Shown one piece after another: positions 6,294 to 55,673 of a stretch of DNA of 64,000 bases (its first letter is position 1; each line of letters begins with the position of its first letter). Under the pieces are notes generated by a model. That model saw only the letters and a program-made list of their open reading frames with translations. It was not told the DNA's origin and searched no databases. The position numbers and the translations under genes were made by a program. Source of the DNA: a virus. The DNA lies in the IMG/VR virus record IMGVR_UViG_3300037264_001145, positions 55,616-119,615 of that record. One strand, 5' to 3'.

Positions 6294-6920
6294 ATGAGCG
6301 TATCAATTTATGTAGGAGAAGACCAATTACTTCCAAGCACTTCCGGCCTTGGTTTTTATGGGAACGATGGCTTTGGCGAATCAATACTCATAGGAGAGTA
6401 TAATGGAAGAATGTTTGTTACAAACGCCTCCGGAACAGAAGAGGGCTTTGAATGTAACAACAATAAATATTTGAACACATCTGGCGTTATTTATGGACAG
6501 ACCGGAAACGGTATTCAATTAATTAGTTTGCCAAACAGTTTAGCTACTATCAATGTCAGATTTGAATATGTGACAGAGGTTAAAACTCTTGCTGGTAGAT
6601 TTTATATATTCGATGGAACGCTGGACGTAGACGATATACCGATGACAGGCAATCCTCCAAGCGGATTAACCTGTTATACCGCCGAGACAAGACATCAAAC
6701 CGAAACCCAAATTCCTGACGGGATAGGAGATACCGATTGGCTTGACACACAAGGGAGTACTTATCTAGAGGTAATTAGTTCCCCAGGAACAAGCGGATTA
6801 AGGCCGAATGGTTCCAATACCTTAGATACGAGACATGATTGGTATATAGCTATGACCGCTACTCCATTTCAGTTTGGGAATAAGCAATTTGCTATGTATT
6901 TTGAGACTGAATTTTTATAA
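6294..6920 (+). CDS. Conserved hypothetical protein, paralog A (probable structural protein)
   Basis: Shares G(L/V)GFYG, NNKYL, NVRF, SPGxSGLxPNG, DxRHDWY and ATP motifs with 7902..8534. Confidence 0.7.
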   Translation: MSVSIYVGEDQLLPSTSGLGFYGNDGFGESILIGEYNGRMFVTNASGTEEGFECNNNKYLNTSGVIYGQTGNGIQLISLPNSLATINVRFEYVTEVKTLAGRFYIFDGTLDVDDIPMTGNPPSGLTCYTAETRHQTETQIPDGIGDTDWLDTQGSTYLEVISSPGTSGLRPNGSNTLDTRHDWYIAMTATPFQFGNKQFAMYFETEFL

Positions 6921-7746
6921 GATCTAAAATAGATTGTGTAAGTTTAGCTTCATTAAATACCTGTTTTTGAACAACTCGTATTTTAATTTTTCCGCATATA
7001 CTTATGTTTTTATCTTTATAATTCAATAATATTGTCCGTTTCTTCTTCTTCGATAATAGATTATTTTTTTGTTCATCTGTTAATTTTATGTCACCAACTA
7101 TTCTTCTTAGAGACGTTATAGGGATATCTAGCTCCATGGATATGTCTCTTAACGAACGCCCCAACGCCCTTTGTTGTCTAGCTAAAAATTCTTTTGTTGG
7201 ACCTATTGTAAGATTTATACTATCCGATAATTTTAATATTCTTTGATATTTGTTTGTTTTTTTATTTTTTTTAATAATTTTTTGTTCTTTTAATACTTGT
7301 TTTTTAATATGTTTAATGGTGCATTTATGTATGTTAAATTTATTTACAATTTCATTAAAACCAAGATTGTTTAAAATCATTTCTTTTATTTTAATTATTT
7401 TATTATTGTCGATACTACTAATTTCTTTATCAATCATTGATTTTCTGTGTAATGCCCTATCTTCTCCATTTTCTTTTGGAGTTCCCCATTTTATGTTTTC
7501 TATATTATTGTTTAATTTATTTCCATCAAGATGTCTACATTGAAAACTCTGTGGTCTATTTCCAGAAAAAGTTTCTAAAATAAGTACATGTATTTTTTCT
7601 ATTTTCCCTTTCAAACAAATAGCCATATATCCATTAGACATAATAAATGGTTTTACAAATTCCTTTTTATCTATATTAAATATTCTTCCATCTCTATAAG
7701 CTAATAAGTTATTATACCTTGGTACTATTTTGGTTTTTACTTCCAT
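6892..7746 (-). CDS. Free-standing HNH homing endonuclease with C-terminal HTH-like extension
   Basis: CRHLDGNKLNNNIENIKWGTPKEN HNH motif. Start taken at MEVKTK (7746). Confidence 0.85.
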   Translation of the reverse strand: MEVKTKIVPRYNNLLAYRDGRIFNIDKKEFVKPFIMSNGYMAICLKGKIEKIHVLILETFSGNRPQSFQCRHLDGNKLNNNIENIKWGTPKENGEDRALHRKSMIDKEISSIDNNKIIKIKEMILNNLGFNEIVNKFNIHKCTIKHIKKQVLKEQKIIKKNKKTNKYQRILKLSDSINLTIGPTKEFLARQQRALGRSLRDISMELDIPITSLRRIVGDIKLTDEQKNNLLSKKKKRTILLNYKDKNISICGKIKIRVVQKQVFNEAKLTQSILDLIKIQSQNT

Positions 7747-7778
7747 TTTTCTTTTTTCCTGACACACTTTCTACTTAT

Positions 7779-7790
7779 ATTATACACTAT
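7779..7790 (-). promoter_or_regulatory. Putative promoter motif (ATAGTGTATAAT) for the HNH gene
   Basis: Same motif family; contains TATAAT; lies upstream of the 7746 start. Confidence 0.5.
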
Positions 7791-7842
7791 CACTACCAAT
7801 TATTGTTTGTTTTTCTTAAATTTTTAAAAAGACGTGTTAAAT

Positions 7843-7855
7843 AATGTGTATTTAT
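7843..7855 (+). promoter_or_regulatory. Putative promoter motif (AATGTGTATTTAT)
   Basis: Near-copy of the 6265 motif, upstream of paralog B. Confidence 0.45.
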
Positions 7856-7901
7856 ATATGTGGTGAAATACAATCAAATTATTTTTGAAAGGGTGATATA
7901 A

Positions 7902-8534
7902 ATGGCTGCTGCGATAACTTTTTTTGGTGGTGTAGGCGCTGGCGAAACCGGCTTGGGAGCTTCTGGTGTAGGATTCTACGGCGCTACCTTTGGTAGCTCT
8001 GTTCAAGTAGCATCTTATCAGGACACGACTTTCATTACTGATACTTTAGGGACAACCAATGGTGGACAAATTGATAATAACAAGTATCTTGGTACTTCAA
8101 GTGGTGTTAAGGTTAATGCGTTTGACAATGAGATTCTTGCTAATGTTCCTACTATCTCTGGAACATTGAATGTGAGATTTACATTTGATACCCCAGTAAT
8201 GACACAAAACGGCGAGTTCAGAATTTTTGACAGAGCGGACATAACCTTACCAGCCACAGGCGTCACCTGTTGGGTAGCTATGATCGGTAACGGCGGTTCT
8301 GGTGTCAACCAGACCACTGGGGAGGCTCAGGCGGGCCATAACGGATGGGCAGCACTGTCTGGAGCATCGCCAAAATGGGTGCTGTTGGCTAGTCCAGGAG
8401 AGTCTGGTTTAAGTCCGAACGGTACGGGAACCAACGACGACAGACATGACTGGTATATATCATTGTCGGCTACACCAACATCTATCGGGTCGAAAACAGA
8501 CTTTGGGGCTTATGTCGCCCTCGAATACCTATAA
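7902..8534 (+). CDS. Conserved hypothetical protein, paralog B (probable structural protein)
   Basis: Collinear similarity to 6294..6920 over the whole length. Confidence 0.7.
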   Translation: MAAAITFFGGVGAGETGLGASGVGFYGATFGSSVQVASYQDTTFITDTLGTTNGGQIDNNKYLGTSSGVKVNAFDNEILANVPTISGTLNVRFTFDTPVMTQNGEFRIFDRADITLPATGVTCWVAMIGNGGSGVNQTTGEAQAGHNGWAALSGASPKWVLLASPGESGLSPNGTGTNDDRHDWYISLSATPTSIGSKTDFGAYVALEYL

Positions 8535-8557
8535 GTTAATTGTAGTTTAATTCAAGG

Positions 8558-8590
8558 AAAAGCCAGATTTATTCTGGCTTTTTCTTTTTT
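8558..8590 (+). terminator. Rho-independent terminator
   Basis: AAAAGCCAGA-TTTAT-TCTGGCTTTT hairpin followed by a T-run, just after the paralog B stop. Confidence 0.85.
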
Positions 8591-8595
8591 ATAAA

Positions 8596-8608
8596 ATAGT
8601 GTATAAAA
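8596..8608 (+). promoter_or_regulatory. Putative promoter motif (ATAGTGTATAAAA)
   Basis: Lies between the terminator and the GAGGAG RBS of 8625; identical 13-mer at 49782-49794 on the - strand. Confidence 0.55.
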
Positions 8609-8624
8609 TAGAGGAGCATTCTAT

Positions 8625-8963
8625 ATGAACCAGAGAACATATTGCATGGATGGCGTCACCCTCTGTGATTCGGTTCAGGAATCAAAAATTGCAAACTGGC
8701 TTTATCTAAATGGAATCACCTTTGAAGCCCACAAGAAATTACCAAAACCATCAAGACAAAAATGTGATTTTTACTTGCCGGATTATCAACTATGGGTGGA
8801 ATGGGACGGGTTGATGGCCGTAAGACAACTTTCTTCAGATCACGCAGATCTTCGGGCAGATAGAAAAGTATCATTTTATAAAAGCCACGGAATGAAATTT
8901 GTGGTCTTAAACAGAGAAAATAATTGGGAGTCTTTATTGCATGAGGCTATTTTTTTGTCATAG
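8625..8963 (+). CDS. Small PD-(D/E)XK (DUF559/Vsr-like) endonuclease
   Basis: DSVQESKIANWL...CDFYLPDYQLWVEWDG pattern. Confidence 0.65.
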   Translation: MNQRTYCMDGVTLCDSVQESKIANWLYLNGITFEAHKKLPKPSRQKCDFYLPDYQLWVEWDGLMAVRQLSSDHADLRADRKVSFYKSHGMKFVVLNRENNWESLLHEAIFLS

Positions 8964-8971
8964 GATGTGAA

Positions 8972-9223
8972 ATGAAATTCCTTAACACTCAAAAAGTATT
9001 GACTGGATTACTGGTGAGCTTATTGGGTCTGGTTGGGGGAGTAGCTGCCGCATCCTATTCTGTAGGAGTAGAAAAAACTAAAATTACACAAAAGGTTGAA
9101 GAGCACGAAAAAGCGTTGCTTGAGATAAATACATATCTTAAAGAAATAAGTCAATCTATTCGCGCTATAGAACTGGATGTGGCTGTCCTGGCTGACGAAC
9201 ATGCCAATCGAACAACCCCTTAA
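8972..9223 (+). CDS. Single-TM plus coiled-coil membrane protein (holin-like)
   Basis: N-terminal hydrophobic helix VLTGLLVSLLGLVGGVAAASY followed by a heptad-like segment. Confidence 0.45.
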   Translation: MKFLNTQKVLTGLLVSLLGLVGGVAAASYSVGVEKTKITQKVEEHEKALLEINTYLKEISQSIRAIELDVAVLADEHANRTTP

Positions 9224-9677
9224 TTGCTTCCGTTAACAGGATACTTAAAACCACAGCCTCCCCATCTGAAATTGCGTGTTTGAAATTAATAGAAGCGTCT
9301 GTTCCTTTTTTCACACTTAGTCCAATATAATAACCAGCATACATTCCTTTTTCAAATTTCAATACGGCGTTTCCATCTTTATTAGAATGAAATAAGCCCT
9401 TATATTTATCGTTATCCTTTTCTTTCGGACCAGCACCATTTTTAACACCGTCTAAAACCGATAACAGTTCTCCCATATCTGTTACGCCCAATTTGAACAC
9501 AAGCTTTTTTTTCCAATTAAATGTTGCATTTCCATTCTCGTCTTTTGTTGGAAGTTGTGCTGCTATCTCGAAAAACACACACCCCTTGTCTTTTGAAAAT
9601 TCAAATTGCGAGGCAGCGCCACTACCGTCTGGTTTAGCTTTGTATATTTTGTAAGATTCTATGAATTTAGTTTCCAT
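9165..9677 (-). CDS. Whirly-family ssDNA-binding protein
   Basis: Collinear match to plant Whirly motifs: IYKAK~IYKGK, FNWKKKLVFKLGVTDMGELLS~YDWSKKQVFSLSVTEIGTLVS, LFH~FFH, VLKFE~VLKVE, YYIGLSV~FFNLSV, EAVVL...LFDWH~EFAVL...LIGWH. Confidence 0.75.
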   Translation of the reverse strand: METKFIESYKIYKAKPDGSGAASQFEFSKDKGCVFFEIAAQLPTKDENGNATFNWKKKLVFKLGVTDMGELLSVLDGVKNGAGPKEKDNDKYKGLFHSNKDGNAVLKFEKGMYAGYYIGLSVKKGTDASINFKHAISDGEAVVLSILLTEAIKGLFDWHVRQPGQPHPVL

Positions 9678-9689
9678 TTTTCTTCACCC

Positions 9690-10547
9690 TTATCTTTTCA
9701 ATTTTTCTTGTACGTGTCCAGTTTGTCTCATATTATTGAGATTAGATAAAACAACCAATCCTTCACAATGTTTTAGATATTTCATATCTACTACGCCATT
9801 ATTAACAACAGAAGAAATCTCTAAATCATCAAGCAATTTCTTTATTGAAATACCGAGTCGATCACTTAAAAGTCTGATAGCTGTTATTTGTCCTGTATTA
9901 ATTAGTTTATTAGCATCATCTACTTCTTCGTCTTTTGTAACCCCGATTTCTTCCGCAGAAACAACTCTCTTAAGTTTTAATGCTGCACGATATGCTCTAC
10001 CCTTTGCTCTTGTATCGGCCATTGCCACTGGATAGATTGCAAAATCTTTGGTACAGTTTGACGGACACGCATCGGCTAACGCCTCGAAAATTCGTCCATC
10101 AGAAAAAACAATACTAGCCTTAGCACAAGCCCTTTCTCCATTTTCCATTGTTGGGGCAGATACAAGTTCGCATTGTTCTCTCGATACTTCCCCAAGCAAT
10201 AGTTCTGCAACACGTCGCAACCCTTCGAGACGTGGATGTTCACCATCCATTTCATCATCCTGGAACAACCCTAATACATATTGTGTCCACGCAGGACTGG
10301 ACGGTTCGGGTATGTCATTAACATTTACATCTACTGTTGTAGAAGCATCTTCTTCCGGAGGAGGATCAACCTTGACCGCATCATCTGATTCTAAATCTTG
10401 TTTTAATTTATCTAAAATAATCAAGGAATCTTCTCCGCGCTTTTCTTCTGCCAACATTTCCTTTAATGCTCCAAGCTTTAAACCAGAAATTTCTTCTTTG
10501 TCACATCCCATCATCAACAATTCTTCAACTATGTCAGACTTTTTCAT
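9690..10547 (-). CDS. Rad52/Sak-like single-strand annealing protein
   Basis: PRLEGLRRVA and PVAMADTRAKGRAYRAAL motifs typical of phage Rad52-fold annealing proteins; acidic linker. Confidence 0.65.
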   Translation of the reverse strand: MKKSDIVEELLMMGCDKEEISGLKLGALKEMLAEEKRGEDSLIILDKLKQDLESDDAVKVDPPPEEDASTTVDVNVNDIPEPSSPAWTQYVLGLFQDDEMDGEHPRLEGLRRVAELLLGEVSREQCELVSAPTMENGERACAKASIVFSDGRIFEALADACPSNCTKDFAIYPVAMADTRAKGRAYRAALKLKRVVSAEEIGVTKDEEVDDANKLINTGQITAIRLLSDRLGISIKKLLDDLEISSVVNNGVVDMKYLKHCEGLVVLSNLNNMRQTGHVQEKLKR

Positions 10548-11025
10548 TCTTCATGTCCTCGACTATGAACTTTATTATTTCAACCAAATTAAAAGATTTT
10601 ATCACCTCGCTATTAATTAACTTAACCCTTGGATCGTGACTCCATCCTTCTACGCTATTATACGAGTAAATGTAAATATTTTTTGATCTACTATTAAGGG
10701 CTGATTGAAGCGTAGAATTACTAGTAACTATCAACGGAGATGTCCACGAACAAATAAAGCGTATATCTAAAATTGGGGCCAAAACAAAGATGCACGGCTG
10801 ATCTAAATCATGGGTAAAAATCGACACGTCTACGCCGGCGAAGTTATTAAAAATGTAATTGATGTTGTTAAATGAATCAATATTCATTTGTGATTTTCCT
10901 AGATTATCGAACAGTATTGCTGTTGAAAACAATTCGCTATCCAAAGACATTCCCAATCTTTGGAAAAGAATTTCTCCATCCCTTTTTCTTTTTTCAGCTT
11001 CTTTCTTTTTATTATCCATTATCAA
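10534..11025 (-). CDS. Hypothetical protein (possibly degenerate glycosyltransferase-associated domain)
   Basis: Overlapping stop/start chain with the adjacent GT genes; no clear motif. Confidence 0.45.
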   Translation of the reverse strand: MIMDNKKKEAEKRKRDGEILFQRLGMSLDSELFSTAILFDNLGKSQMNIDSFNNINYIFNNFAGVDVSIFTHDLDQPCIFVLAPILDIRFICSWTSPLIVTSNSTLQSALNSRSKNIYIYSYNSVEGWSHDPRVKLINSEVIKSFNLVEIIKFIVEDMKNEKV

Positions 11026-11791
11026 TAATCACATTTACTGGGCATGACAAGCAAATTCCTGATAATTCTTCTTCTCTTAGGTTTTCCGTAAAAGTTCTGA
11101 ACGCTTCTGTCGGTCGCGTTAATGTCTTATAGGCATCTGTTATATAAAGTCCGTACACTTGTGGGAAAGGAAGAACAATAGTTTTGGCAATCCTATTCAT
11201 GAATGGCCAAAAGACAAATCTTGTGTCTTTATCATTCACTTCTTCTGTCATCGTTATTATATCTTTTCCAGATAAAATTTTGTTACTAGGAACAACAACG
11301 AAATATTTTTCTTTGATTGTTTTGGATATTCTCTTCACAGTTTGTTCTGGTTTTTCTTCTTCGTGACTTGGAACAAGAACGTCCAGATTTTTTAGACCTT
11401 TGTGATTTTTGAATATATCAATTATTTGCGATCTATTAGTTTTTCTTGTGACATCTGCTATGATAATTCTTTTACATAAAATAGGAATATTATAAGAATC
11501 AATAGGGCTTACTGGATATGAACTATAAGTTAAACTACGCCCAAGAGATTGAAGGTTATCGTCGTCACTATGAATAATAACAAGATCAAATTCTAGCTTA
11601 GATTCTTGTATAGCTAATTGTATTAATTTTTCCTGTGTTGCGTTCTTGTTCTTGGCCCATTTTTGGGAACGCCAGTATCGACAAAACCCAACAGCGTATG
11701 CGCATTTAGAAGTATTTATAAAAAATTGGTTAGCTAGACATTTATTATCTTTAAAATGGCAACATTTATTACAATCGCTAGCGATCACCAA
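11012..11791 (-). CDS. Hypothetical protein with N-terminal Cys cluster, weakly GT-A-like
   Basis: CNKCCHF...C...C...C N-terminus; FDLVIIH and YFVVV beta-strand pattern. Confidence 0.4.
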   Translation of the reverse strand: MVIASDCNKCCHFKDNKCLANQFFINTSKCAYAVGFCRYWRSQKWAKNKNATQEKLIQLAIQESKLEFDLVIIHSDDDNLQSLGRSLTYSSYPVSPIDSYNIPILCKRIIIADVTRKTNRSQIIDIFKNHKGLKNLDVLVPSHEEEKPEQTVKRISKTIKEKYFVVVPSNKILSGKDIITMTEEVNDKDTRFVFWPFMNRIAKTIVLPFPQVYGLYITDAYKTLTRPTEAFRTFTENLREEELSGICLSCPVNVIIDNG

Positions 11792-14041: not shown

Positions 14042-15747
14042 TAAAACACCTCGAACTTAAGTTTTGACTTATCAACATTGATCATAGCCACTCTTTTTTC
14101 TTCGGATTGATTTCTGTGGCTTAAAATTTCAAGAAAATGATCTACCAAAGATTGTCTGTTCGTTGCTATTTTTTGACTACCTACAATTCTAAAACCAGCA
14201 TTAAGATGTTTTACCCATTCAGCGGAGAAGGCGGTGTTTACCATTTCTGGTCTATGAAATATACTCACCATGACCCAGTTTACAAACTCTACGGAATCAA
14301 ATTTATCAAAATTATCTGGTTTTGTAATCTCGGTCGTTTCTATTTGTGCAATGGGATTCAACCACGTTAAGTTTGGATCTTTGATTTCACACTGGTTCAA
14401 AACATTTACCCAAATAGCCGCTGTTCTATCCCAAGAAAAGCGAGGAAGTTTTTCCTTTTGTCCATATACGTCTACTAGTTCCGTTGCGTATTTCACGGTT
14501 TCCTTCGACATTTCTTTTCTTTTTTCAGCAGAGAATCTAACGAATTTATCTAATTTTTGTACGAAGTCGTCGTTGTTCGGAAGAGCTCTTCGTTGCTCTG
14601 TCTCCGTAATACTTTCGTAAAAATATCTCCCAACTTCTATGGGGATGCTTGTTGGACAAACAAGGTGATCTTCCATAGCAGAATATCTAACAGCCGCTAT
14701 TGGGGTTCCACAAGCCATTGCGTCGTTACACGGCATACCATAGCCCTCTGATACGCTATATTGAACATACAGATCAAACAACCTCATTATTTCAGCGAGA
14801 ACTTCTCTTGATGGAGAAGAATCGGCATTTGGAGGATGTGCTGCTTTTTGTCTGCATCGTCTACACACAGCCCATTCCCCCTGAAAGAAACTTGGATAAA
14901 CGGTTCCACAGTTGTTACATACATATGTCATTAAAACCTTTGTGCCAACCTTGAATTCTATAATTGCTCTTCCTATGTCATAACCAACGTCTGGATAACT
15001 TGTGTGCAAATATAAAAATGTCTTTTTAACTAAATCTATGTGTCCTTTTGTTTTTGCTTTATATACCCATTTAGAGAAGGCTTCTACTAAATCATAATAT
15101 AATTTTCTTTTTTGATTTCGCATGACCGTACCAATAATTATTGTACCTGGATCAATACTAAGTTTTAATTTGTGCGCCCCTTTGTCGTCTGGTGGTTTAA
15201 AAACGTTCAAGTCTGATCCGGGGGACGCAACGGTTATCATGTTTGTTCCCTTGAACGCATCTTTTTTCATTATGTCCCACGCCCACTGAGAGTATGTCAG
15301 ACACCCATCGCATCTTCTATAGATATCTAGCCACAAATCTCTTTGTGGAATTCCATCTATAGTTAACATCCAATACCAAATAAAATATTTACGAAACACA
15401 GACTTGTCTATAAATTCGTCCATCCAATAGTCACGAATAGAGAGAACAATATCTGGTTTAAAATGCAAACAAACATCATCGAATCTCCATGCTCCGAATT
15501 GATTTATTGGATTAGACTTATAGGCTTCGTGCCCCTCTTCATCACCTTCTCCTGGGGCGACGGTATAAATTTGCCATGGAACCGACTTTATTCTTGCGTC
15601 ACCGTCGCGTCCATACGCACCTAATTCCGCTATCTCGAACTCACCAGTGTCATAAATTCTTTTGATAACTTCGTGCCAATATGTTGCGAAACCAGTTGCA
15701 AGAAAAGAAGCTTCGCCGACAAAAAGAACTCTTTTCTTCCTAGACAT
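14041..15747 (-). CDS. GT-B (GT4-like) glycosyltransferase with inserted CxxC...CxxC zinc ribbon
   Basis: TGFATY and YVQYSVSEGYGMPCNDAMACGTPI motifs; CNNC...CRRC insertion. Confidence 0.88.
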   Translation of the reverse strand: MSRKKRVLFVGEASFLATGFATYWHEVIKRIYDTGEFEIAELGAYGRDGDARIKSVPWQIYTVAPGEGDEEGHEAYKSNPINQFGAWRFDDVCLHFKPDIVLSIRDYWMDEFIDKSVFRKYFIWYWMLTIDGIPQRDLWLDIYRRCDGCLTYSQWAWDIMKKDAFKGTNMITVASPGSDLNVFKPPDDKGAHKLKLSIDPGTIIIGTVMRNQKRKLYYDLVEAFSKWVYKAKTKGHIDLVKKTFLYLHTSYPDVGYDIGRAIIEFKVGTKVLMTYVCNNCGTVYPSFFQGEWAVCRRCRQKAAHPPNADSSPSREVLAEIMRLFDLYVQYSVSEGYGMPCNDAMACGTPIAAVRYSAMEDHLVCPTSIPIEVGRYFYESITETEQRRALPNNDDFVQKLDKFVRFSAEKRKEMSKETVKYATELVDVYGQKEKLPRFSWDRTAAIWVNVLNQCEIKDPNLTWLNPIAQIETTEITKPDNFDKFDSVEFVNWVMVSIFHRPEMVNTAFSAEWVKHLNAGFRIVGSQKIATNRQSLVDHFLEILSHRNQSEEKRVAMINVDKSKLKFEVF

Positions 15748-16294
15748 GTAATTTATCTCTTATTTTCTTAAACATTCTACATTTTTCTGTTCTACTTTTG
15801 TCTGTTTCGTCCGTTAATAATAAGTCCATTTCTTCTTCGGAGAGTCTGTCGTTAATTTCCATCAAATCCACTGGTTGTCTCATGTCTTGTATATCGTCAC
15901 GTATTTCATTAATCGACATAGAAAGTTGTTTTAATTCCATCAATCTTTCATAAGATATATTTAACGTTCTGGCAATATATTCTTCTGTTTTACCATTATT
16001 AATATGCTGTCTAATTTTAGATGCTAAAACTTTATCTACAAATGAAGCATGTAGCGGTCCTGTAGATTTAATAGCCTCGTTTCTCATTTCGTGACTTATT
16101 GACGCACAAACATATGTTTTGAATGAACCTTTTTCTATTTGCCATCGCTTACAAGCCTTCCACAATGCGATTAGTCCTATTTGCGTATAATCGTTGCGCG
16201 ACAAATAGCTGTTGTGATAGATGATGGATACCCTACGAGACAAGCTATTGATAAACCTAATATATTGCTTGTAGTTAGAACGGAATTTCTTCAT
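15740..16294 (-). CDS. RNA polymerase sigma-70-like factor (region 2 and HTH)
   Basis: DYTQIGLIALWKACKRW...GSFKTYVCASI region 2 pattern; IARTLNISYERL HTH. Confidence 0.75.
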   Translation of the reverse strand: MKKFRSNYKQYIRFINSLSRRVSIIYHNSYLSRNDYTQIGLIALWKACKRWQIEKGSFKTYVCASISHEMRNEAIKSTGPLHASFVDKVLASKIRQHINNGKTEEYIARTLNISYERLMELKQLSMSINEIRDDIQDMRQPVDLMEINDRLSEEEMDLLLTDETDKSRTEKCRMFKKIRDKLHV

Positions 16295-16766
16295 TCTCTT
16301 CCGCCTCTGATGGTACTGTTACTGGTTCTGGTTGCGGCTGTGATTTAACAGCAGTAGGCTTTGTCTTTTTGTTTTGGGGAGGAGCAGGAGCGGGAGCGGG
16401 AGCAACTTCCTTCTCCACAGAAGCAGCAACGACTGTTTCCCCATTTGTTTTTTGTACGACTTCAAAACTATTCAAAGTTAACACAAGAACCGTTCTTTTA
16501 TCACCCTCCGTACTAGTCCATGAATCTTGTTTAATATAACCTTCAACAAAAACAGGAACACCCTTCTTGACAAATTGTGCAAACTTTTCGGCTCTTGGTC
16601 CAAAAATTTGACACTTAACAAAAGACACTTCCTTTTGCCACGCCCCATCCTTGTCCTTATAACTCTTATTGAAGGCTAAACTTACGTTAGCCACGCTCGA
16701 AGTACCAAGTGGTCGCATTTCACTATCGGTTGTGGCGATCCCAACCCCATAAGCCTTGAGTTCCAT
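16275..16766 (-). CDS. ssb: Single-stranded DNA-binding protein (OB fold)
   Basis: KKGVPVFVEGYIKQDSW motif; acidic C-terminal tail ending EEIPF. Confidence 0.95.
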   Translation of the reverse strand: MELKAYGVGIATTDSEMRPLGTSSVANVSLAFNKSYKDKDGAWQKEVSFVKCQIFGPRAEKFAQFVKKGVPVFVEGYIKQDSWTSTEGDKRTVLVLTLNSFEVVQKTNGETVVAASVEKEVAPAPAPAPPQNKKTKPTAVKSQPQPEPVTVPSEAEENEEIPF

Positions 16767-37884: not shown

Positions 37885-38230
37885 AAATTTCTACCAATTT
37901 AAAATTGTTTAATTTACACCATTCTCTTTTACGACCATCTCTTTCTTGTTGTTTGTTGAAATCAATTTTGGTTCTATGAAAGAATTTTACGTGTTCAACG
38001 TGTTGTCTCCCCTGACATTCAATTACCATAAATCTTGATGGAATAAAAAAATCTAAATAAAATTTCTCAACAGGCACATACACTTCCTCAAAGATATTAT
38101 CATCTGGATACTGTTGTAATAATCGTATCTTTATTGATTTTTGAAATTTAGACCTACTGAAATTTTTGTCAGAAAGATACTTCTTTAGATTTATCTTTGT
38201 GTGAGAACCGTTTAATAGTTTAAGTATCAT
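37877..38230 (-). CDS. DUF559/Vsr-like endonuclease
   Basis: EEV...YLDFFIP..VIECQGRQH...QQERD..KREWC motif. Confidence 0.75.
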   Translation of the reverse strand: MILKLLNGSHTKINLKKYLSDKNFSRSKFQKSIKIRLLQQYPDDNIFEEVYVPVEKFYLDFFIPSRFMVIECQGRQHVEHVKFFHRTKIDFNKQQERDGRKREWCKLNNFKLVEIYG

Positions 38231-39264
38231 TTTGGCAATAGTATCTCACGAATTTCATTCTCAAATTTAACAATGTGTTCTGGATTGTTTTTGAAGTATT
38301 CACGAATCTTGTCTAATCCCTGGAGTTTTAATGGATTTTTATTTTCATCCAATATTGACGGTATATTGTACCAACTTCCACTTTTTTGAATTAATCCAAG
38401 ATTTTCGGCGTGAATTATTACATCCTTTGCTGTGTCTATACCTTCTCCGTATCTCAATGGAATTGAACACGGAATATATGGTTTTCCAAGAGCAGAACAA
38501 ACCACATTTACCATAAGATCTTGACCGTCTGGCTCGTTGGTGTCTGGATCTTTATCCCATATTTTTGCCCAATTAACATTTAGCCAAACAGAACAAGCAT
38601 AGCCTATCGCTAATCCACCCTTCTCTATAAATTTTTTCCCGTTAGGCTCCCTGTTTGTTTGAAGTTGACTAAGAAATATCACAATATTGTCGTTGTCGTC
38701 AATGGTTTGTTGAACTTTTCTAAAGAAAGAAGCTAGCAATTTTGGAGTTCCAGCCATGTCACGATTATCACCAATCAATTCACTCTGTTCTGCCATAGTA
38801 GACAAAGCCGCGATACTATCTACAACCGTGACGGCTCGTGGATTATCTTTGATTGTTTGTTCTATAATTCTAAACCAATCTTCCGCCGACAACACCTTGT
38901 CTGGCGTAGACTTGATGATATTTAATTTTTCGGTATTCAAACCTGCAATAGTTTTTAACAAACTTTGACTACATCTTCTTTCTATGTCAACATAAAAAGC
39001 TGGTCTACCATCGTTTATAGCGTTTTTAAGAATATGCAAGCAAAGACTTGTTTTACCAACCTTTGATTTTCCACTGAGCAAACACGTCACACCAGATGGA
39101 ATTCCGCCAGAGAGAGATATGTCCAATGATAATGCTGTTTTAAGTATTTCTCTTTTCTTGTCTATAATCTTGTCGGCAGTTTGAATAATGCCTTCCCCAT
39201 AGGTTCTTTCAAGAAATTTATCAAAACCCTCTTCAACAACCTTATCCGATTTTTTCTTCGCCAC
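38227..39264 (-). CDS. recA: RecA/UvsX-like recombinase
   Basis: LDISLSGGIP, GKSKVGKTS, VDIE, VVDSIAAL, FLSQ and KSGSWY motifs. Confidence 0.92.
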   Translation of the reverse strand: MAKKKSDKVVEEGFDKFLERTYGEGIIQTADKIIDKKREILKTALSLDISLSGGIPSGVTCLLSGKSKVGKTSLCLHILKNAINDGRPAFYVDIERRCSQSLLKTIAGLNTEKLNIIKSTPDKVLSAEDWFRIIEQTIKDNPRAVTVVDSIAALSTMAEQSELIGDNRDMAGTPKLLASFFRKVQQTIDDNDNIVIFLSQLQTNREPNGKKFIEKGGLAIGYACSVWLNVNWAKIWDKDPDTNEPDGQDLMVNVVCSALGKPYIPCSIPLRYGEGIDTAKDVIIHAENLGLIQKSGSWYNIPSILDENKNPLKLQGLDKIREYFKNNPEHIVKFENEIREILLPK

Positions 39265-54965: not shown

Positions 54966-55673
54966 CTAATTTACATTAAATTTAAACAATTTTTCTGTTC
55001 TATTGGCCTTACCCCCATCGGCTGTATTCATACAAGTTTTTCTTTCTATTTGCCAGACACAACTGAAATCGTCTGGTGCTTTATACTCTGACACATATAT
55101 ATCATGGATATTTGAAAATTCTCTTACTACTCTCCAAAATCTTTGATGGTCAAATGGAAATCTATATTGTGTTGTATTTATATATGGAATATCACAATAT
55201 AATAATGATCCAACAGGAACACATTTTAAAACATCTTCGTAATCAGCACAACAAAATTTAACTCCCTCTATTCCCTTTTTAAGTCTTAAAGAACTATTAT
55301 AAGCTCCTTTTATAAAATCGTACCCACCTTTTGGATCTCTTGCCACTCCCCCAAACCATTTCCCTCCAAAGCTTGTAAAGTAACCACAAAATCCAATTTC
55401 CGCATTACAAACACCACTTTTGTATAATTGTTTTAGCTCGTTATATCTATCTTCAGAAAGATTTGTTGGTGGTAGCCATCCCACTTGTATTTGTCTATAA
55501 AATTCTATTAGATATGGACAAATATCAGAAGCTATTCTTTCTCCATCCATTAATGAAATTACAGCACCACCGCCAACAAATGGTTCTACATATATTTGTT
55601 TATGTTTACGAACAGATTTCAAAAAATCAGTAAGTGGTTTTGCTATTCTTACTTTTCCTCCGACGTATCTCAA
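54966..55673 (-). CDS. Dam-like DNA adenine methyltransferase
   Basis: RYVGGK, YVEPFVGGG, SD and YCDIPY (DPPY variant) motifs. Confidence 0.85.
   Translation of the reverse strand: MRYVGGKVRIAKPLTDFLKSVRKHKQIYVEPFVGGGAVISLMDGERIASDICPYLIEFYRQIQVGWLPPTNLSEDRYNELKQLYKSGVCNAEIGFCGYFTSFGGKWFGGVARDPKGGYDFIKGAYNSSLRLKKGIEGVKFCCADYEDVLKCVPVGSLLYCDIPYINTTQYRFPFDHQRFWRVVREFSNIHDIYVSEYKAPDDFSCVWQIERKTCMNTADGGKANRTEKLFKFNVN

Follow-up and report, generated by a model that had tools for sequence, protein, structure and literature searches.

We analysed a 64,000-nucleotide (nt) stretch of viral DNA, positions 55,616 to 119,615 of the IMG/VR virus record IMGVR_UViG_3300037264_001145, and refer to this whole stretch as the window. 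It represents the 3' 64 kilobases (kb) of a 119.6-kb record that is estimated to be approximately 71% complete. Two neighbouring genes on its minus strand were found to encode a Whirly-family protein of 170 amino acids (aa) and an annealase-like protein of 285 aa. We consider that the pair probably constitutes a phage recombination module, in which a Whirly protein would occupy the slot usually taken by the single-stranded DNA (ssDNA)-binding protein (SSB) and would cooperate with the annealase. The two open reading frames (ORFs), together with the 12-nt gap between them, were read directly where the initial annotation, made from the DNA letters without database searches, had placed them. The pair and its parts are as follows.

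9165-9677, minus strand: Whirly-family protein, 170 aa, Pfam PF08536.
9678-9689, minus strand: spacer GGGTGAAGAAAA, 12 nt, from the TAA of the annealase-like gene to the ATG of the Whirly gene, read directly.
9690-10547, minus strand: annealase-like protein, 285 aa, of a viral family without a name; RAD52 and Sak as top fold matches.
9693-9917, minus strand: its C-terminal small helical domain, residues 211-285, similar to the Red-beta C-terminal domain.
9948-10292, minus strand: its core, residues 86-200, with two helices, three strands and a long helix bearing the invariant T179-R180...R184.
10389-10547, minus strand: its N-terminal helical domain, residues 1-53, a helix-turn-helix plus a long helix according to secondary structure and model confidence, HeH/SAP-like by eye.

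The similarity of the 170-aa ORF to Whirly proteins, proposed in the initial annotation, was borne out by profile comparison, in which the protein matched Pfam PF08536 with 25.5 bits (cut-off 23; E 1.3e-5) over residues 28-144. A word-indexed search with this protein retrieved four close relatives only, and another word-indexed protein search returned nothing but unnamed metagenomic sequences. When a profile was searched against 1.84 billion representatives, at least 564 clusters were obtained at E <= 1e-3, of which 313 reached E <= 1e-10, and stand-alone proteins of 150-190 aa made up nearly all of them. Among 76 sampled family members, 32 individually matched Pfam Whirly (E <= 0.01), with a best E value of 1.6e-9. 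The profile built from these 76 sequences was compared with PDB sequences, and the top six matches were plant Whirly chains (StWhy2, E 2e-4; AtWHY2, 2.6e-3; p24, 0.043; AtWHY1, 0.048; AtWHY3, 0.14), followed by MRP2 (E 0.5). This depth was needed, as a shallow five-sequence profile found no PDB relative; PHROGs held no match for the protein. These results indicated that the 170-aa protein truly belongs to the broad Whirly family.

Databases already contain phage members of PF08536 that were named automatically. One of them, the uncharacterised UniProt entry A0A6J5NR37, 'Whirly transcription factor [uncultured Caudovirales phage]', was the best structural match of the protein in BFVD (E 9e-7, 24% identity); no discussion of it was found in the literature searched. 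The Whirly fold was also observed in BFVD among uncharacterised proteins of cultured Acinetobacter, Bacillus, Aeromonas and Mycobacterium phages, for example gp208, gp212 and gp230 of Bacillus phage W.Ph. and proteins of Bacillus phage BPS10C and Acinetobacter phage vB_AbaM_ME3; these show 8-16% identity to the window protein, and some of the genomes carry multiple paralogues. Beyond phages, Whirly-family genes that pass Pfam Whirly were found on two contigs of archaeal metagenome-assembled genomes (MAGs), at loci L096 (40 bits) and L099. L096:5698-6447 lies in the Micrarchaeota MAG JAGGVH010000039.1 and L099:4590-6732 in NCBI GCA_043797485.1, JAZDPR010000009.1. The neighbours of these archaeal genes are cellular, including TFIIB, ribosomal L35Ae, TrmB, pilus ATPase, PfkB and NFACT, and the Whirly gene of L099 overlaps a gene for a 477-aa DHH (RecJ-like) phosphoesterase at the latter's end.

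The structural comparison gave the same answer as the profiles. The AlphaFold2 model of the 170-aa protein (predicted local distance difference test score, pLDDT, 94.6; predicted template modelling score, pTM, 0.86) displayed a tandem beta4-alpha topology, in which strands at residues 9-63 are followed by a helix at 65-75, and strands at 95-136 by a helix at 138-156. This tandem beta-beta-beta-beta-alpha fold superposed on solved Whirly structures, and the first nine Foldseek matches were plant Whirly chains (E 5e-8 to 5e-7). Identity was 20-28% to the plant ssDNA-binding Whirlies versus 12-14% to MRP. Across the family, conserved positions were Y12-K/R13 (72/76 and 73/76 members), G20, A22, Q41, F53-D-W55 (Y-D-W in plants; F53 in 76/76 and W55 in 74/76), K62, H97, E140 and W158 (58 of 61 ungapped rows). 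The C-terminal helix at residues 138-156 was present and conserved at L144, L147, L148 and A151, and a 12-aa C-terminal extension distinguishes the window protein from its relatives.

The initial annotation had described a motif-by-motif match to the plant domain from IYK(A/G)K to the terminal WH. The landmarks were indeed conserved family-wide, but the N-terminal IYKAK lay outside the HMMER local alignments, and its match to the plant YKGK was established by eye and structural superposition only. At the hallmark site, the window protein reads I-Y-K-A-K-P-D-G-S-G-A-A-S; the hexapeptide KGKAAL is absent, a loop is inserted after Y-K-A-K, and residue 15, which corresponds to the second lysine, is K or R in just 37/76 members. 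KGKAAL is a hallmark of land-plant Whirlies, and its second lysine (K67 of StWhy2) drives 24-mer assembly (PMC3245945); the motif is also missing in Whirly-like proteins of green algae and Marchantia (PMC9070903). Because KGKAAL is absent and the second lysine varies, we placed the protein in the broad Whirly family, outside the land-plant subgroup and on a separate phage branch, so that the earlier label of Whirly was kept and its qualifier 'plant-type' was dropped. The most likely state of the protein is a tetramer, which would bind ssDNA.

The annealase-like family is large and comprised 117 word-indexed homologues and 397 IMG/VR relatives. The model of the 285-aa protein (pLDDT 90.1) consisted of four parts, namely the N-terminal domain, a disordered linker (residues 54-85), the core and the C-terminal domain. 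The best Foldseek matches of the model were human RAD52, Sak of phage 80alpha and Mgm101, at weak E values of 8e-3 and above. For the core, alignments with RAD52 and Sak extended over 103-112 residues, whereas double-stranded RNA-binding domains (dsRBDs) scored alike but covered 60-84; the C-terminal domain matched that of Red-beta. The initial annotation's Rad52/Sak-like call for the upstream gene was echoed by these weak top fold matches and found no counterpart in sequence membership. The family profile returned low-complexity noise only when compared with PDB sequences. Two Atlas results serve as leads only: a sibling cluster in which 19% of the members carry PF12949 HeH, and an SSAP_Sak cluster with a score of only 0.86. 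The segments L-E-G-L-R-R-V and T-R-A-K-G-R-A-Y-R may resemble the DNA-binding motifs E-G-H-R-V-I and T-D-G-L-K-R-A-L-R of RAD52. A single homologue was found in a cultured phage, gp49 of Paenibacillus phage API480 (32% identity), whose gene sits between a host-nuclease-inhibitor (Gam-like) gene and an SSB gene, with primase and Pol I following. On grounds of structure and gene context, and not of sequence, a Rad52-type annealase is the most likely identity of the 285-aa protein.

The two genes stand at the end of a minus-strand run of overlapping or closely spaced genes (11012-11791, 10534-11025, 9690-10547 and 9165-9677), and the spacer GGGTGAAGAAAA contains a purine-rich, Shine-Dalgarno-like stretch. 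In the best reading of this layout the Whirly and annealase-like genes are co-transcribed, and they are probably translationally coupled. We then assessed whether the linkage extends to other genomes, from both sides. Starting from the Whirly protein, eight loci with available DNA were reached through the nearer Whirly-like proteins P0003, P0004, P0124, P0126 and P0145, and the annealase-like gene was directly upstream in 8/8 of them; the distant Whirly member L098 was also linked to an annealase-like gene. A 61-kb contig with a 34%-identical Whirly protein showed the same gene lengths and order as the window. Starting from the annealase-like protein, 80 IMG/VR loci were reached through its family, and a Whirly-like gene followed immediately downstream in 27, with a spacing mostly of -14 to +15 nt. 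Among the relatives, directly abutting genes or overlaps of 1-14 nt are frequent, and the linked pair stays adjacent down to approximately 31% annealase identity. The initial annotation's expectation of a link to an annealing-type gene in other genomes was confirmed by these counts, and the same-strand adjacency typical of annealase and ssDNA-binder modules was conserved across the relatives.

In the close relatives checked (L004-L008), the intervening genes were HNH homing endonucleases. These insertions lie exactly between the annealase-like and Whirly genes (L004:7329-7988 and L007:7536-8000; also L005, L006 and L008) and match phrog_374 and phrog_3377 with E values down to 1e-65; the window has no such insertion. 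As exceptions to the linkage, L013 has lost the Whirly gene and kept the annealase, and L020 ends too early to judge. In a quick maximum-likelihood tree of the annealases, linked genes fell in one major clade (24/26 rows), and further linked lineages (L035/L037/L058 and L044) were located near a large unlinked clade, on a tree with branches of more than one change per site. Linkage was found on both sides of the deepest split. The N-terminal domain was present in 33/33 Whirly-linked annealases, and 51/51 annealases without the domain were unlinked; two exceptions were noted.

The genome itself is of bacteriophage type and belongs to a large, uncultured phage. Its replication genes in the window include a split DnaE-type Pol III alpha, DnaB and a class I ribonucleotide reductase, and the window further encodes a sigma-70 region-2 protein, an HNH homing endonuclease and a terminase-like ORF, as well as a BrxL-like gene. 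An algal virus with a captured host Whirly was considered and rejected because of the bacterial-type gene content, that is, DnaE-type Pol III alpha, DnaB, bacterial-type SSB, RecA, the sigma-70 region-2 protein, HNH homing endonucleases and the terminase-like ORF. Searches by blastn and tblastn with the region and the Whirly protein against 50,697 phage records gave no matches. As the initial annotation had stated, the same phage also encodes a normal OB-fold SSB and a RecA.

16275-16766, minus strand: OB-fold SSB, PF00436, 66.9 bits.
38227-39264, minus strand: RecA-family recombinase, PF00154, 79.8 bits.

The SSB has a Pro/Ala-rich linker and a canonical acidic tip (...EENEEIPF), and its gene lies 6.6 kb from the Whirly gene. 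The gene for the sigma-70 region-2 protein (15740-16294, minus strand) directly follows the SSB gene, and this SSB-sigma order is the same in the relative L007.

None of the computable observations that the initial annotation had named as refuting (no significant Whirly profile or structural match, no conserved linkage to annealing proteins) was made, and from the pairing we infer the function of a module. Its upstream protein would combine the HeH-like N-terminal domain, a putative beta-beta-beta-alpha annealing core and a Red-beta-like C-terminal domain that binds a partner. In this module, the Whirly protein would coat resected or lagging-strand ssDNA and block spurious annealing at microhomologies, as plant Whirlies do. 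The annealase may be suited to ssDNA that Whirly has coated, with its N-terminal domain as the candidate Whirly-facing part, and would overcome the Whirly block where homology is long. Its Red-beta-like C-terminal domain is a candidate part for binding the SSB tail or a nuclease and would perhaps act as a tether to the SSB tail; the acidic tail of the window's SSB is a possible ligand of this domain. Long complementary strands would in this way be annealed for recombination-dependent replication or repair.

Several observations weigh against this interpretation. The 285-aa protein had no Pfam or PHROG match, and none of 46 relatives fell into an annealase Pfam family, the curated families checked being Pfam Rad52_Rad22, SSAP_Sak, RecT and ERF together with PHROGs. 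Comparison by hhalign gave E 0.29 with 80alpha Sak and E 0.11 with lambda Red-beta, both non-significant; the best Sak alignment falls on the invariant TRAKGR helix, a lead only at that E value. The linked loci are kin, and the counts of linkage come from related phages rather than from independent events; they therefore show persistence of the linkage, not independent origins. An annealase clade of 51 loci lacks Whirly, and the Whirly members L096, L097 and L099 lack an annealase. A second ssDNA binder is not obviously needed, because the phage already has SSB and RecA, and Whirly-fold proteins, such as ChmC and MRP1/2, can bind RNA. As for further partners, the 163-aa protein encoded just upstream received no explanation from Pfam, PHROGs, PDB profile searches or Atlas, the next protein, of 259 aa, gave a sub-threshold NmrA match only and no exonuclease identity, and no YqaJ match was found in the incompletely recovered record.

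The alternative that survives best is that the Whirly-like protein acts independently, as a second ssDNA-binding or DNA-compacting protein (a specialised SSB or a nucleoid-type coat), and that the adjacency reflects shared timing and inherited gene order. Plant Whirlies also have a role in nucleoid architecture (PMC9070903), the archaeal L096 and L099 and also L097 do without an adjoining annealase, L013 dispensed with its Whirly and not with its annealase, and the linked loci belong to related phages with broadly conserved synteny. Against these points stand the persistent adjacency, often with overlapping stop and start codons, down to the lowest annealase identity and to either side of the tree's deepest split, the mobile HNH nature of the interruptions in the close relatives checked, and the near-perfect association of the annealase N-terminal domain with the presence of Whirly. 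We regard independent action as improbable.

Less probable still is a module for handling RNA, in which a Whirly-fold RNA binder and a dsRBD-like alpha-beta-beta-beta-alpha core would together match or anneal RNAs. Such a role has a precedent in ChmC, the Whirly-fold RNA binder of jumbo phages. Plant ssDNA-binding Whirlies are, however, closer to the window protein than MRP is, both in identity and in PDB profile E value (2e-4 versus 0.5), and the RAD52 and Sak alignments reach well beyond those of the dsRBDs. The Red-beta-like C-terminal domain, the position of the API480 homologue among Gam-like, SSB, primase and Pol I genes, and the DNA replication neighbourhood in the window likewise argue for DNA. 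The weakest candidate, very unlikely in our estimate, is a counter-defence device that would keep nucleases of the host, or its sensors for abortive infection, away from the ssDNA or DNA ends of the phage by masking or protecting them; the host-nuclease-inhibitor gene beside the API480 homologue, the defence-bound phage protein Gp77 (RAZR, 9y6u) among weak Foldseek matches and the BrxL-like gene are consistent with it, but no similarity to known anti-defence proteins was detected for either protein, in a comparison that did not extend to the PADLOC library, and an annealing core with a Red-beta-like tail followed by an ssDNA binder corresponds point for point to the architecture of a recombination module.

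Two genes upstream of the annealase-like gene belong to the conserved block.

10534-11025, minus strand: 163-aa protein, overlapping the start of the annealase-like gene by 14 nt; BLASTP synteny.
11012-11791, minus strand: 259-aa Cys-rich protein, conserved further upstream in the block; BLASTP synteny.

The gene for the 163-aa protein is upstream of, and mostly abuts, the annealase-like gene in nearly all Whirly-linked loci, and its product has the invariant residues S45, N56 and F70; it may be a third component of the recombination module. Downstream of the Whirly gene, two small convergent genes (8625-8963 and 8972-9223, both plus strand) are likewise conserved in place across most linked loci. 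Of their products, the one of 112 aa shows a D-F...E-W-D-G pattern reminiscent of small PD-(D/E)XK nucleases and has no Pfam match; the 83-aa product is membrane-like, and the 3' end of its gene overlaps the 12-aa extension of the Whirly ORF by 59 nt. Further along, 6294-6920 and 7902-8534 (both plus strand) encode paralogues of approximately 209 aa with similar C-terminal ends (...RHDWYI...TP...), and an HNH_3/NUMOD4 homing endonuclease gene lies between them on the opposite strand (6892-7767, minus strand). The short form of the annealase (approximately 240 aa, no N-terminal domain) has its own conserved trio in L039-L091, at around 7150-9050 of each. Its upstream gene, encoding approximately 263 aa, gave weak PD-(D/E)XK-type, REase_MTES_1575, DUF2726 and homing-endonuclease PHROG matches, and its downstream gene, of approximately 110 aa, is zinc-ribbon-like. 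The approximately 263-aa protein may be the nuclease partner of the short-form annealase.

Plant reviews (PMC9070903 among the sources) and a 2026 preprint call Whirly plant-specific or plant-unique, and no prokaryotic or viral members of PF08536 were reported in the literature searched. In the present results, the window protein falls into a large family of phage proteins whose sequences are related to Whirly and which also has archaeal cellular members, and within one broad lineage of phages the Whirly gene is tied to the gene of a Rad52-like annealase. What would be new here is an annealase and ssDNA-binder module with Whirly in the SSB slot. This novelty is tempered by the Whirly-fold phage protein already published, ChmC, and by the phage protein automatically annotated as Whirly in UniProt. 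If the two proteins cooperate, they would provide a two-protein bacterial-virus system for a question from plant organelles, namely whether Whirly works with or competes against the RAD52-like ODB1 on ssDNA, and would represent a new class of accessory proteins for phage annealases with a possible use in recombineering. The origin of plant Whirly also becomes testable by phylogeny, on which the phage family may have a bearing.

Among known systems, the layout of the pair is shared by phage 80alpha, in which the gene of Sak (identical to PDB 8qe9) is directly followed by ssb, with overlapping stop and start codons, and by API480 gp49 and its SSB; in each case an annealase or annealase-like gene precedes an ssDNA-binder gene on the same strand. 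A Sak4-SSB module of HK620 is also cited in a preprint (bioRxiv 10.64898/2026.10.24.761589). In contrast to Sak-SSB, the binder in the window has a Whirly fold instead of an OB fold, and a separate OB-fold SSB is encoded elsewhere in the phage; the annealase-like protein differs from Sak by its additional HeH-like N-terminal and Red-beta-like C-terminal domains and shows no sequence similarity to it. Lambda Red-beta has the corresponding C-terminal domain (PDB 8tfu, 6m9k), for which the window phage SSB offers a matching acidic ...EEIPF tail, whereas no recognised exonuclease gene lies beside the window pair and the sequence comparison was non-significant. ChmC, a nucleic acid-binding homotetramer of the Chimalliviridae jumbo phages, also has the Whirly fold and prefers RNA (bioRxiv 10.1101/2023.09.22.559000); it has no detectable Whirly sequence similarity, carries a disordered condensate-forming tail and functions in mRNA handling (bioRxiv 10.1101/2023.09.22.559000). 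The window protein resembles it in being a phage-encoded Whirly fold and differs in being detectably Whirly by sequence and in its DNA recombination context.

The closest comparison is with the plant organellar Whirlies (StWhy1, that is, p24 of PBF-2; StWhy2; AtWHY1/2/3; PDB 1l3a, 3n1h, 4koo, 4kop and 4koq), which belong to the same Pfam family by hidden Markov model score. Both sides have the [FY]-D-W motif, the Y-K of the first strand and the C-terminal tryptophan. The phage protein differs by the lack of a transit peptide and of KGKAAL, by an inserted loop of 4-5 residues, and by lying in what reads as an operon with an annealase-like gene. In Arabidopsis, WHY2 was co-purified with the RAD52-like protein ODB1 (PMC9070903), and this plant pair parallels the phage pair of Whirly and annealase-like protein. 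A bolder reading, which we advance tentatively and consider rather unlikely, is that the phage pair corresponds in both function and evolution to plant-mitochondrial WHY2-ODB1. Whirly and a Rad52-type annealase would then represent an ancient cooperating unit, with annealing gated by Whirly and with an N-terminal domain by which the annealase recognises ssDNA under a Whirly coat; plant Whirly would descend from a prokaryotic-virus or archaeal lineage and would not be a plant invention.

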